This document shows, one piece after another, positions 30,111 through 34,571 of a stretch of 39,992 bases of DNA. This DNA is from a virus. A program made the translations under genes and the position numbers. Where the stretch lies: UHGV virus genome UHGV-0186582. One strand, 5' to 3'. Numbering within the stretch: the stretch's first letter is position 1; the number at the start of each line of letters is the position of its first letter. Under the pieces are notes generated by a model, which worked only from the letters and a program-made list of their open reading frames with translations, did not search any database and was not told the DNA's origin.

Positions 30111-30761
30111 ATGAAAACTCAATTGATGGGAGAGCGCATTCGCGCTCGGAGAAAAGAACTCAAGATCAGGCAGGCCGCACTTGGAAAGATGGTCGGCGTG
30201 TCTAATGTTGCCATATCTCAGTGGGAACGCTCTGAGACAGAGCCAAATGGAGAGAATCTTCTCGCCCTGGCTAATGCGTTGAAGTGTTCCCCTGACTATC
30301 TGATGAAAGGAGAGGAAAGTCTTTCAAACATTGCCTATCACAGTAGGCATGATCCAAGAGGGTCATTCCCTCTGATTAGCTGGGTGAGCGCAGGGTGCTG
30401 GATGGAAGCTGTAGAACCATATCATAAGCGTGCAATAGATAACTGGTACGATACAACCGTAGACTGTTCAGAAGATTCGTTTTGGTTGGACGTGAAGGGA
30501 GACTCAATGACGGCTCCAGCCGGTCTCAGTATCCCTGAAGGAATGATAATACTCGTCGATCCTGAAGTAGAGCCGCGTAACGGGAAACTTGTAGTTGCAA
30601 AGCTCGAAGGAGAAAACGAGGCAACTTTCAAGAAGTTAGTTATTGATGCAGGCAGGAAGTTTCTAAAACCACTTAACCCACAATATCCGATGATCGAGAT
30701 CAACGGAAACTGCAAAATCATCGGCGTAGTTGTCGATGCAAAACTAGCAAACCTTCCATAA
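30111..30761 (+). CDS. c2: C2 repressor (P22 type, LexA-like autocleaving)
   Basis: 216 aa; MKTQLMGERIRARRKELKIRQAALGKMVGVSNVAISQWERSETEPNGENLLAL... matches recalled P22 C2. Confidence 0.9.
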   Translation: MKTQLMGERIRARRKELKIRQAALGKMVGVSNVAISQWERSETEPNGENLLALANALKCSPDYLMKGEESLSNIAYHSRHDPRGSFPLISWVSAGCWMEAVEPYHKRAIDNWYDTTVDCSEDSFWLDVKGDSMTAPAGLSIPEGMIILVDPEVEPRNGKLVVAKLEGENEATFKKLVIDAGRKFLKPLNPQYPMIEINGNCKIIGVVVDAKLANLP

Positions 30762-31074: not shown

Positions 31075-31347
31075 ATGACAGTAGTCATTACATATCTGGC
31101 TGACGATAACGCCAGAAATCGCCGCAGAGCACGCAGACAGGCTCAACGTGAACAGGCAATGCAAGAGCAGCGACTGGCGCGAAAAATTGCGCTAAAGCTC
31201 TCTGGTTGCGTCAGAGCAGATAAAGCAGCATCACTCGGAAGCATTCGCTGCAAGAAGGCAGATGAATGCAGTGGAAGTATTTGCCTGCCAAACGTAGCCA
31301 TTTACGCGGCAGGCTACAGGAAATCCAAACAGCTGACAGCAAGATGA
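31075..31347 (+). CDS. N-like transcription antiterminator (P22 gene 24-like)
   Basis: 90 aa; arginine-rich motif NARNRRRARRQAQ; C-terminus LPNVAIYAAGYRKSKQLTAR resembles recalled P22 gp24; GGAGG RBS. Confidence 0.65.
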   Translation: MTVVITYLADDNARNRRRARRQAQREQAMQEQRLARKIALKLSGCVRADKAASLGSIRCKKADECSGSICLPNVAIYAAGYRKSKQLTAR

Positions 31348-31410: not shown

Positions 31411-31573
31411 AATTGAAATACCAGACAGCTTCGACCCTGAATGGCAAGCAATGATGCTTCGCCAGTTAGCTGGGAACATTGAGGCACTTAAAAATCGAGA
31501 AGATGAACCTGACGAACTACTTATCGACTGCGAGGAAATTATCGAATCTCTTCGCGAATATTCAGGATTTTAA
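31406..31573 (+). CDS. Small acidic hypothetical protein (55 aa)
   Basis: ATG inside repeat A copy 1; MEIEIPDSFDPEWQAMMLRQLAGNIEALKNREDEPDELLIDCEEIIESLREYSGF; below ORF-track cutoff. Confidence 0.3.
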   Translation: MEIEIPDSFDPEWQAMMLRQLAGNIEALKNREDEPDELLIDCEEIIESLREYSGF

Positions 31574-31598
31574 GGCCGAATAGTCGGCCTTTATTTTT
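31574..31598 (+). terminator. Rho-independent terminator (tL1-like)
   Basis: GGCCGA-ATAG-TCGGCC followed by TTTATTTTT. Confidence 0.5.
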
Positions 31599-31615
31599 GG
31601 CATAAACAACAGAGG
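31586..31615. repeat. Repeat B copy 1 (30 bp exact, second copy 32821-32850)
   Basis: GGCCTTTATTTTTGGCATAAACAACAGAGG identical at both sites, each ending in the AGAGG RBS of a paralogous gene. Confidence 0.85.
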
Positions 31616-31620
31616 TGGAT

Positions 31621-31881
31621 ATGACCGTAGAAAGAATGAAAAGGCCGTGGAGTGTTGTTGGCACTGGATTCAACGATGATGGTGTTTATGTCACGTTTGA
31701 CGATACAACCATACATCGAGGTGATTTGAGATTGATGGAGGCAGCTCCTGATTTGCTTGAAGCTCTGCAAGCGATGCTAAACAAGGCATACAAGCAAAGC
31801 TGGAATGACCATTATCCTGATGAAGTATCGAAAGCACTGTCAGCAATTAGCAAAGCTATTGGTGAAGATTATTACGATTGA
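31621..31881 (+). CDS. Hypothetical protein, paralogue of 32856-33152
   Basis: Shares AAPDLLEALQ...AISKA.G motif with second copy; ATG 31621 after repeat-B RBS. Confidence 0.5.
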   Translation: MTVERMKRPWSVVGTGFNDDGVYVTFDDTTIHRGDLRLMEAAPDLLEALQAMLNKAYKQSWNDHYPDEVSKALSAISKAIGEDYYD

Positions 31882-32615: not shown

Positions 32616-32816
32616 ATGACTACGACTATTGATACAAATCAATGGTGTGGACAATTCAAGCGATGCAATGGATGCAAGCTGCAATCGGAATACATGGTTA
32701 AGCCTGAAGAAATATTTCCTGTAATGGAAGATGGGAAATATGTCGATAAATGGGCAATACGAACGACGGCAATGATTGCCAGAGAACTTGGTAAACAGAA
32801 TAACAAGGCTGCCTGA
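32616..32816 (+). CDS. Hypothetical small protein (Cys-motif CGQFKRCNGC)
   Basis: 66-aa ORF; its start overlaps a 28-codon acidic mini-ORF (32546-32632) so the true coding unit is uncertain. Confidence 0.35.
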   Translation: MTTTIDTNQWCGQFKRCNGCKLQSEYMVKPEEIFPVMEDGKYVDKWAIRTTAMIARELGKQNNKAA

Positions 32817-32820
32817 TGGT

Positions 32821-32850
32821 GGCCTTTATTTTTGGCATAAACAACAGAGG
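32821..32850. repeat. Repeat B copy 2
   Basis: See copy 1. Confidence 0.85.
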
Positions 32851-32855
32851 ATAAC

Positions 32856-33152
32856 ATGGAATTTAAAGGTACTGAAGGCAAGTGGGAAATAATGATGGAT
32901 GGCGATGAGATTAAAATAATCCAGGCAGACTCACTTGAAAATGGCGCAGGCTGGCGTTCGTATATTGCAATCTGTGAGGAAGTTCAATGTATTGAAGATG
33001 CCAATCTAATAGCGGCAGCACCTGACCTTCTCGAAGCACTTCAGTTATTACTTAAGCAATCCAAAAATAGAACAACGACAACATATCCAGAATGGTATGG
33101 AGCTGTTAATAAAGGTCTTGCAGCAATCAGCAAGGCTCTGGGAGGTGAATGA
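32856..33152 (+). CDS. Hypothetical protein, paralogue of 31621-31881
   Basis: 98 aa; IAAAPDLLEALQLL...AAISKALGGE. Confidence 0.5.
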   Translation: MEFKGTEGKWEIMMDGDEIKIIQADSLENGAGWRSYIAICEEVQCIEDANLIAAAPDLLEALQLLLKQSKNRTTTTYPEWYGAVNKGLAAISKALGGE

Positions 33153-33352
33153 TGTGCGAGTTTTATGAAGCAGATATCAAACGCCCAGAAATGGCAAGTG
33201 ATGCGACATTACGTGATTACTTCGCGGCAAAGGCTATGCAAGCAATGATTAGCAATCCATCGATTATCGATAATGATTCTGATGGAGTTGTTAATTATGC
33301 AGCAAGCGCTGCATATAAGTTTGCAGACGCAATGCTCAAAGCTCGCGAATAA
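33149..33352 (+). CDS. Hypothetical protein
   Basis: 67 aa, ATGA overlap with upstream stop. Confidence 0.45.
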   Translation: MMCEFYEADIKRPEMASDATLRDYFAAKAMQAMISNPSIIDNDSDGVVNYAASAAYKFADAMLKARE

Positions 33353-33451
33353 GCACTGTGTATTCATTCCAACGAGTGAATACACGGAGCAATGTCGCTC
33401 GTAACTAAACAGGAGCCGACTTGTTCTGATTATTGGAAATCTTCTTTGCCC

Positions 33452-33478
33452 TCCGATGTGGGGGGCCTTTTTATATGC
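33452..33478 (+). terminator. Possible terminator-like hairpin
   Basis: CCCTCC-GATGT-GGGGGG followed by CCTTTTTAT. Confidence 0.3.
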
Positions 33479-33538
33479 ATACCAATAACGCTTCACTCGA
33501 GGCGTTTTCGTTATGCAATCAAACAGAAGGAGCATCCT

Positions 33539-33709
33539 ATGCAACAGTTCGCTATTGCAGGGGCGGCATCGGTTCGCCCTTTCAACCCGATTTTATCGGT
33601 ACAGCATTCACGAAAAAACATTTTAACCGGAGCAGACTTTAAACAACCAAGAATGAAAAGTTTGCTCGAAAAGCTTTGGGATATTTTGAAACAACAAGGC
33701 CGTCCATGA
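33539..33709 (+). CDS. CIII-like protein (FtsH inhibitor family)
   Basis: 56 aa; MQQFAIAG... and ...LWDILKQQGRP resemble lambda CIII MQYAIAG...LIDILNQPGVP; AGGAG RBS. Confidence 0.45.
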   Translation: MQQFAIAGAASVRPFNPILSVQHSRKNILTGADFKQPRMKSLLEKLWDILKQQGRP

Positions 33710-33864
33710 GTTTTACAGATAACTGGTCAGACGAAGAATTCATTCGTCAGATGAAAGAATTAATCGGTAACGAAGGAGATATTCATGTCACTTGCAACCA
33801 CAGTGAAGGAGAGCAAGTTACAGAGACGCATGTACACGCAGAAAGCTCTCTGGTATCGCCATAA
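33706..33864 (+). CDS. Hypothetical small protein (kil position)
   Basis: 52 aa from ATG overlapping cIII-like stop. Confidence 0.3.
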   Translation: MSFTDNWSDEEFIRQMKELIGNEGDIHVTCNHSEGEQVTETHVHAESSLVSP

Positions 33865-33965: not shown

Positions 33966-34571
33966 ATGAGCAAAGAATTTTACGCAAGACTGGCAGTTAT
34001 TCAGGAAAATCTGAACGCGCCCAAGAATCAGTACAACTCATTCGGTAAATATAAATACAGAAGCTGCGAAGACATTCTTGAAGGCGTTAAGCCGTTACTG
34101 AATGGTCTGTTTTTATCAATCAGCGATGAAGTTGTGTTGATTGGTGATCGGTATTACGTGAAAGCCACGGCAACTATTACCGATGGCGAAAACAGTCATA
34201 CGGCAACCGCTCTTGCACGAGAGGAAGAAAGCAAGAAAGGAATGGATTCTGCACAAGTTACTGGAGCTACAAGCTCTTATGCACGCAAGTATTGCCTCAA
34301 TGGTTTGTTCGGCATTGATGATGCGAAAGATGCAGATACAGACGAGCATAAACATCAGCAGAACGCAGCAGCAAAGCAATCAAAACCATCACCTACATCT
34401 GAACAGGTTCTAAAAGCATTCACTGACGCAGCAATGCAGAAAAACACCGTAGAAGAGCTTAAACAGGCGTTCGCCAAAGCGTGGAAGATGCTCGAAGGCA
34501 CACCGGAGCAGCACAAAGCGCAGGACGTTTACAACATCAGACGAGATGAATTAGAAGGAGCGGCTGCTTAA
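33966..34571 (+). CDS. erf: Erf single-strand annealing recombinase (P22 Erf-like)
   Basis: MSKEFYARLAVIQENLNAPKNQYNSFGKYKYRSCEDILEGVKPLL... matches recalled P22 Erf; start taken at ATG 33966. Confidence 0.8.
   Translation: MSKEFYARLAVIQENLNAPKNQYNSFGKYKYRSCEDILEGVKPLLNGLFLSISDEVVLIGDRYYVKATATITDGENSHTATALAREEESKKGMDSAQVTGATSSYARKYCLNGLFGIDDAKDADTDEHKHQQNAAAKQSKPSPTSEQVLKAFTDAAMQKNTVEELKQAFAKAWKMLEGTPEQHKAQDVYNIRRDELEGAAA

Follow-up and report, generated by a model that had tools for sequence, protein, structure and literature searches.

The inverted repeat in the gap upstream of the cIII-like gene of virus genome UHGV-0186582 is genuine and forms an RNA stem-loop that is widely conserved in the early-left transcript of lambda-like phages, and its 3′ foot coincides with the start of a homolog of the lambda small RNA PreS/LPR1. 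On the evidence of sequence comparison, we lean towards the view that the hairpin is a structured element of the pL RNA at cistron junctions, where it would specify or delimit the cut that makes the 5′ end of PreS. The recent description of PreS does not deal with its excision from the pL transcript (bioRxiv 10.1101/2024.10.31.621285). The covarying hairpin, present in lambda itself, is a candidate signal for PreS biogenesis; if it does direct cleavage, accessory genes upstream of it, such as ral and nun, would be affected in their stability as well. The present analysis adds the occurrence of the hairpin unit at other cistron junctions, a second sRNA (PreS2) with the common slot and leader, and mosaic breakpoints at the hairpin feet. 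Coordinates refer to the window, that is, the whole stretch of 39,992 nt that was analyzed. The hairpin is made up of the following parts:

33353–33390, + strand: extended RNA stem-loop with a lower stem, a 10-position variable stem and a loop (fold, inverted repeat, covariance model)
33358–33366, + strand: 5′ arm of the perfect 9-bp repeat, GTGTATTCA (sequence)
33367–33376, + strand: spacer or loop, TTCCAACGAG (sequence, RNA fold)
33377–33385, + strand: 3′ arm of the perfect 9-bp repeat, TGAATACAC (sequence)

The initial annotation had reported a perfect 9-bp inverted repeat with a 10-nt spacer. The repeat is present as described on the + strand, at 33358–33385 rather than at 33357–33384. As RNA, the helix reaches beyond these perfect 9 bp to 14 contiguous pairs, G-U included. 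In the RNA fold, the lower stem GCAC/GAGC comprises G33353-C33390, C33354-G33389, an A×A mismatch and C33356-G33387, and three outer positions on each side of the loop can pair (U-G, U-A, C-G), so that a CAAC tetraloop remains. The extended hairpin has a folding energy of −27.4 kcal/mol (z = −6.8), a value that 0 of 200 shuffles matched. It is the second-longest inverted repeat of the window and, despite its low G+C content, ranks about seventh by folding energy among all 44-nt windows on the + strand. A covariance model of the family has a single match in the window, which is this hairpin (49.8 bits, E 1e-7). Within a 151-nt fold, the hairpin and the next helix adjoin without a linker. A pairing between the left flank and the PreS leader (GCGA/UCGC) was not conserved across flank types and was dropped from the structure.

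The surroundings of the hairpin in the window are as follows:

30111–30761, + strand: cI-like repressor (gene search)
31075–31347, + strand: N-like antiterminator (gene search)
− strand: cro and cII
33149–33352, + strand: upstream ORF of 67 aa, phrog_2201 (ORF list, profile match)
33345–33352, + strand: linker GCGAATAA with the stop codon (33350–33352) of the 67-aa ORF (sequence)
33387–33473, + strand: PreS/LPR1 homolog, +1 at G33387 (GAGCAATGTCGCTCGTAACT) (lambda alignment; primers P810, P1103, P969 and P1104; LPR1 numbering)
33420–33436, + strand: PreS seed CTTGTTCTGATTATTGG, identical to lambda (lambda alignment)
33448–33472, + strand: intrinsic terminator of the PreS homolog, GCCCTCCGATGTGGGGGGC followed by CTTTTT, counterpart of lambda tL2a (terminator scan)
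33487–33513, + strand: a further terminator-like hairpin, AACGCTTCACTCGAGGCGTT with TTCGTT after it, immediately before cIII (terminator scan)
33539–33709, + strand: cIII-like gene (phrog_550, E 1e-22)
33966–34571: Erf-like recombinase

The layout of cI, the N-like gene, cro/cII and cIII identifies the + strand as the pL transcript, and the earlier assignment of the hairpin to that transcript is borne out by the cI-like, N-like and cIII-like genes, all three of which lie on the + strand. The hairpin sits in an intergenic gap, with its extended stem (from 33353) starting directly after the stop codon of the 67-aa ORF; the linker GCGAATAA that carries this stop codon also terminates many unrelated upstream genes in other phages. 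The initial annotation placed the hairpin before the cIII-like gene. The gap is indeed upstream of cIII, but an 87-nt PreS homolog with its own terminator lies between the two and had gone unseen. This homolog (33387–33473) is unannotated, and the loop of its terminator reads GATGTGGGGGG in the window versus AGTGTGAGGG in lambda. The terminator-like hairpin at 33487–33513 has, by alignment, a conserved counterpart upstream of cIII in lambda, and may correspond to tL2b. A small ORF that begins at 33392 is not accepted as a coding sequence: its Shine-Dalgarno spacing is only 2 nt, its frame shifts with terminator-loop indels between lambda and the window, and its in-frame fusion to cIII here is accidental. 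The 105-aa ORF at 33392–33709 that joins the PreS region in frame with cIII is probably an artefact of such a terminator-loop indel; the same long reading is annotated as "putative cIII" in mEpX1.

The initial annotation had proposed conservation in related phages as a check, and the hairpin is conserved in them. An identical 28-nt hairpin is found in lambda (J02459, 34013–34040) between ral and ea10, in HK75 downstream of nun, and in mEpX1. The block of hairpin plus PreS occurs in 2234 of 5426 complete E. coli genomes (about 40%), with up to six copies per genome; most copies of the hairpin have the same sequence, in part because of recent horizontal spread. Matches in 352 phage records mostly start at query position 253/254, the 5′ foot of the hairpin, with many unrelated genes to the left. 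The searches were anchored on the sRNA instead of the hairpin, and every genuine PreS locus found through the sRNA seed carries a hairpin. A contig scan with a PreS 20-mer added no sequence diversity; its matches included low-coverage contigs from assemblies of Pseudoxanthomonas, Shewanella, Pseudomonas, Bradyrhizobium, Neobacillus and others (loci L125–L145). Most of the contigs are lambda-like and several are about 48.4–48.5 kb long, so the matches in unrelated genera are probably lambda DNA contamination. Neither the GenBank nor the RefSeq record of lambda has anything annotated at the hairpin. A search of Rfam 15 gave no match at the gathering threshold over the window, only chance-level matches in 33250–33720, and none in the SEN22 locus. 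In the literature searched the hairpin is neither annotated nor discussed, and papers of the 1980s on lambda tL2 and pL processing may describe the dyad. An intercistronic processing or stability hairpin is a known category; this particular family, with its four covarying stems and its link to PreS, seems not to have been described.

Those four stem types, A to D, fill one and the same slot, which consists of GCAC, a 10-nt arm, a loop starting with UU, a second 10-nt arm and GAGCAAU:

Type A: 5′ arm UGUGUAUUCA, 3′ arm UGAAUACACG (this window, lambda)
Type B: 5′ arm CUAUAGCAGA, 3′ arm UCUGCUAUGU (many IMG/VR contigs)
Type C: 5′ arm UUAAUGCGGA, 3′ arm UCCGCAUUGY (Salmonella phage SEN22)
Type D: 5′ arm CUAAUGACCA, 3′ arm UGGUCAUUGU (IMG/VR contigs carrying PreS2)

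In all four types the arms are exactly 10 nt long, the loops measure 8–10 nt and the top A-U pair is invariant; U15, U16 and A21 do not vary in the family alignment. Because a MAFFT alignment of the full hairpins (A1) introduced gaps into the arms, loops were cut back to 8 nt, which gave A2, an ungapped alignment of 37 distinct sequences. In A2, 92.7% of cells are paired versus 65.3% in shuffles, a level that none of 500 shuffles reached, and sliding the registers by 1–3 columns left 21–49% of cells paired. Pairing has been kept through double-sided changes, as in a conserved RNA secondary structure, with 8 of 13 pairs changed on both sides. Each stem lineage keeps 9–10 of its 10 pairs, and since there are only four lineages, the independent covariation events behind these figures are few. 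The + strand folds more stably than the − strand in every type (−18.8 versus −13.1 kcal/mol in type A, −13.2 versus −10.2 in B, −12.6 versus −11.4 in C and −13.4 versus −8.9 in D), owing to the G-U pairs of the sense fold. A relaxed descriptor scan of all loci yielded no convincing fifth stem type, only noise from coding regions. The pattern of pairing points to a single-strand structure that has been selected in the sense of the pL RNA.

Several readings that do without such a structure can be weighed against these data. The bare repeat is unexceptional, with six perfect 9-nt repeats (spacer 3–20 nt) in the window against 2.8 ± 2.1 expected from composition-preserving block shuffles, 12.5% of which hold at least six. 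A chance repeat without function would fit this near-chance rate of perfect 9-bp repeats, but it is contradicted by the extension of the helix, by conservation and by the four covarying stem types, and its probability seems to us close to nil. The protein-binding site that the initial annotation offered as one option did not survive the comparison of stem types. A perfect 9-bp dyad in an intergenic gap is what a palindromic duplex-DNA site for a dimeric regulator would look like, but between identical flanks the half-sites are wholly unrelated among the four types, the spacer is 8, 9 or 10 nt long, and the conserved G-U positions would be G-T mismatches in duplex DNA; the type A stem is moreover found in phages with different regulators, namely N in lambda, Nun in HK75 and the N-like protein in the window. 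The hairpin is therefore better read as a selected RNA structure, and we regard a duplex operator as exceedingly improbable. Very improbable, too, is a transcription pause or termination signal acting as an atypical terminator on either strand. The hairpin is stable, lies at the end of an ORF and has intrinsic terminators nearby (32805–32826 and 33448–33466), yet both strands lack a U-tract in each of the four types, A and U prevail in the stem, the − strand fold is the weaker one, and transcription continues across the region into PreS and cIII. The earlier remark that no T-run follows the repeat, which would set it apart from a typical terminator, was correct: the sequence downstream is GGAGCAATGTCGC, and the terminator scan is silent at the hairpin. 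Assignment to the Rho-independent terminator class was accordingly rejected (A/U-rich stem, GGAGCAAUGUCG downstream, no scan call), and the same holds for types B–D. A nut site or an HK022 put site was also considered and rejected: there is no boxA CGCTCTTA, the stem has 12–14 bp versus the 5-bp boxB hairpin with its pentaloop, the hairpin lies 2.3 kb from pL and beyond N, not just downstream of pL or pR like the two-hairpin put structure, and putL of HK75 is annotated elsewhere.

The position of the hairpin relative to the sRNA is what gives the RNA structure a candidate function. In lambda, PreS/LPR1 is an Hfq-dependent sRNA encoded between ral and ea10, which is about 88 nt long on northern blots, is processed to about 68 nt, ends at the terminator tL2a and is seen only in the lytic cycle; it activates translation of dnaN, raising host DnaN and phage replication (bioRxiv 10.1101/2024.10.31.621285). 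Primers P810, P1103 and P1107, together with the base numbering, put the LPR1 +1 at the G of GAGCAATGTCGCTCGTAACT, a position that may be several bases off, as the mapping method is not given (bioRxiv 10.1101/2024.10.31.621285). This +1 (G of GAGCAATG) lies two bases past the perfect stem, and the northern size of ~88 nt agrees with it. The window thus carries the same locus as lambda, with a homolog of identical seed directly 3′ of the hairpin, but PreS/LPR1 as defined excludes the hairpin, which lies outside the 88-nt transcript (GAGCAAUG...UUUUUUA); only the GAGC of the lower stem overlaps the sRNA. The primer for the full deletion, P969, ends in ...GTGAATACACG, so that the hairpin was left intact in the lambda PreS deletion, and the preprint makes no mention of a hairpin, an RNase or a promoter (bioRxiv 10.1101/2024.10.31.621285). 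A scan of the sequence upstream of the sRNA found no promoter. Bases −12 to −7, read by eye, are AGTGAA, AGTCTG, ATTCCG and AGTGGT in types A–D, and because the bases at the −10 position differ in this way among stem types, a sigma-70 promoter for the sRNA is disfavored and was rejected. As PreS has no promoter and is made only when pL is active, its 5′ end is best explained by cleavage of the pL transcript. To our knowledge, E. coli has no 5′ exonuclease, and a promoterless 5′ end must therefore be made endonucleolytically.

Among the options named in the initial annotation, an RNA processing element is the best fit, in view of covariation in the stem, the greater stability of the sense strand and the published 5′ end of PreS at the 3′ foot of the hairpin. 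We infer that the hairpin specifies or delimits an endonucleolytic cut that would separate the message of the 67-aa ORF from the PreS homolog, possibly an RNase III-type nick at the base of the helix, about 12–13 pairs from the loop. The upstream mRNA would retain the hairpin at its 3′ end, shielded in this way from 3′ exonucleases, and nicking at the 3′ foot would provide the sRNA precursor with a 5′ monophosphate. This in turn could favor later trimming to the 68-nt form, with a 5′ end near 33405–33408.

RNase III is the candidate nuclease, and the hairpin is possibly one of its sites. Classical RNase III substrates have roughly 22 bp, and the helix of the hairpin is shorter. From the putative cut G33386|G33387 to the loop there are 12–13 stacked positions in type A and 12 in types B–D. 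Substrates of E. coli RNase III have 12 positions (A–L) on each side (PMC6212723). The 12–13 stacked positions match this substrate geometry, for which about 11–12 were taken as the mark. On the lower side of the putative cut there are only C56-G87, C54-G89 and G53-C90 (numbered by the last two digits) plus the A×A mismatch, and further pairing depends on the flank. In RNase III sites mapped in vivo, the two positions between the paired cuts are base-paired, usually with G-C (PMC6212723). The corresponding positions between the putative paired cuts are U-G and G-C in type A and a mismatch and U-G in types B–D. With such weak or unpaired positions at its base, the hairpin is reminiscent of sites at which only one strand is nicked.

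The closest parallel to the proposed processing at the hairpin foot comes from phage T7. The early RNase III sites of T7 (R0.3, R0.5, R1.1 and others), worked on by Dunn and Studier, are reportedly intercistronic hairpins in the early polycistronic transcript; they are said to be cut on the 3′ side of the helix base, with the hairpin kept on the upstream RNA as a 3′ protector. The helices at the T7 sites are longer and in two parts with a defined internal loop, and their cleavage by RNase III is proven, whereas the lambdoid hairpin is a predicted site with a lower helix of three pairs; unlike in T7, the product downstream of it is an sRNA. Lambda itself has RNase III-sensitive hairpins in the pL transcript, sib and the N-leader site, which control the fate of neighboring messages. 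The sib element needs read-through to complete its long helix and destabilizes int; the hairpin described here is shorter than the sib helix, and dependence on read-through is known for sib only. DicF, from the dicB operon of the Qin prophage, is likewise an sRNA of a lambdoid early operon that is released from a polycistronic transcript, as the title of Faubladier et al. indicates. DicF has no sequence relation to PreS, and in the present case a hairpin stands at the 5′ boundary.

The hairpin also occurs outside the PreS context. A diverged sRNA, GAGCAAUAUCGCUCGUAACCAAACGAGGACGACGACUCGUUCUGGUUAAUCG..., here named PreS2, occupies the same hairpin slot and shares the same 24-nt leader, with a different terminator. 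PreS2 follows all four hairpin types, and PreS proper follows A and B. PreS2 is absent from Rfam, and scanning behind the common leader turned up no third sRNA body. Its seed region is diverged and it has an extra segment; it was seen at locus L258 (SEN22) at 701–806, at L248 and L254, and at many of the loci L259–L376. At seven cIII loci (L246, L247, L250, L252, L253, L255 and L257), PreS and both terminators are absent, and hairpin A and GGAGCAAT run straight into the ribosome-binding site of cIII. In at least 13 loci, hairpin B is followed by a 66-aa ORF, then by hairpin A and then by PreS2, the two units being 270 nt apart. At one of the loci examined (L261, 320–625), B and then A units flank the 66-aa ORF (391–591), which gives it the look of a gene cassette. 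Across loci, the stem type reassorts against both neighbors, and mosaic breakpoints fall at the hairpin feet, at 33352/33353 in most phage records and at 33387 in SEN22. Since the hairpin is found without PreS and on both sides of a cassette, it is a general intercistronic linker that is not exclusive to PreS, and because it is retained at loci lacking PreS, it must have some role besides PreS biogenesis. In the Rac prophage of K-12, an annotated sRNA, KilS (b4833), lies at an analogous slot upstream of kilR (locus L377, 7406–7503, − strand); there is no hairpin at this slot, and KilS is unrelated to PreS by eye.

Two alternatives draw on this wider distribution. The hairpin could be a passive intercistronic stability or insulator element that does no more than stop 3′ exonucleases on the upstream cistron or keep the folding of adjacent RNAs apart, with the 5′ end of PreS made independently, for example by RNase E, where single-stranded RNA begins. 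Such an element would be expected to begin right after the upstream stop codon, to recur at other cistron junctions, to be kept where PreS is missing and to have stems that are interchangeable relative to both neighbors, all of which is observed. A barrier, however, cannot set a 5′ end in E. coli, which is not known to have a 5′ exonuclease, and the reported end (G|GAGCAAU) lies at the helix base, not in A/U-rich single-stranded RNA, with GAGC itself able to pair. Nor would a plain barrier need an arm length of exactly 10 in four types while the loop varies, and we consider a purely passive hairpin unlikely. The second alternative is a DNA-level linker at cassette boundaries that promotes modular exchange, either as a patch of homology or as a folded single-strand recombination site. 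Breakpoints placed exactly at the hairpin feet, a 66-aa gene cassette flanked by two units and the reassortment of hairpin types against both flanks are all in keeping with it, but breakpoints at conserved noncoding patches are expected from homologous recombination plus selection, and no recombinase dedicated to it is known, nor was one observed. A role in RNA is in line with the G-U bias of the sense strand and with the hairpin lying at an RNA 5′ end, although strand bias alone would be compatible with single-stranded DNA. We judge a DNA-level linker to be decidedly improbable. Integron attC sites offer a comparison, as hairpins of variable sequence and conserved structure with short conserved flanks, which mark gene-cassette boundaries and are recognized as folded single-stranded DNA by the integron integrase; there is no such integrase and no core motif (GTTRRRY) here, so the likeness is one of analogy only.

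Returning to cleavage at the hairpin foot as the preferred reading, a more general version of it can be put forward tentatively, as a possibility about which we are rather doubtful. GCAC/stem-loop/GAGCAAU could be a modular cassette that is cut at its conserved base by RNase III or another nuclease, freeing sRNAs of the PreS family and the messages of individual accessory genes from N-antiterminated transcripts, with the four mutually orthogonal stems kept so that multiple copies within a transcript or genome can coexist without mispairing or recombining. In a bolder variant, the folded unit may double as a DNA-level site of cassette exchange.

A second kind of repeated intergenic linker was observed in the window at 32805–32850, consisting of a terminator-like hairpin plus GGCATAAACAACAGA. 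In lambda, a linker of the GGCATAAACAACAGA type lies just downstream of ral (locus L003, about 1300–1250, − strand), where it is fused to the hairpin unit, and translations of − strand ORFs suggest that a related copy may lie near 31540–31600 of the window. The small ORFs at 31615–31881 and 32856–33152 are paralogous and have the motif AAPDLLEAL in common; the second of them matches phrog_1273.
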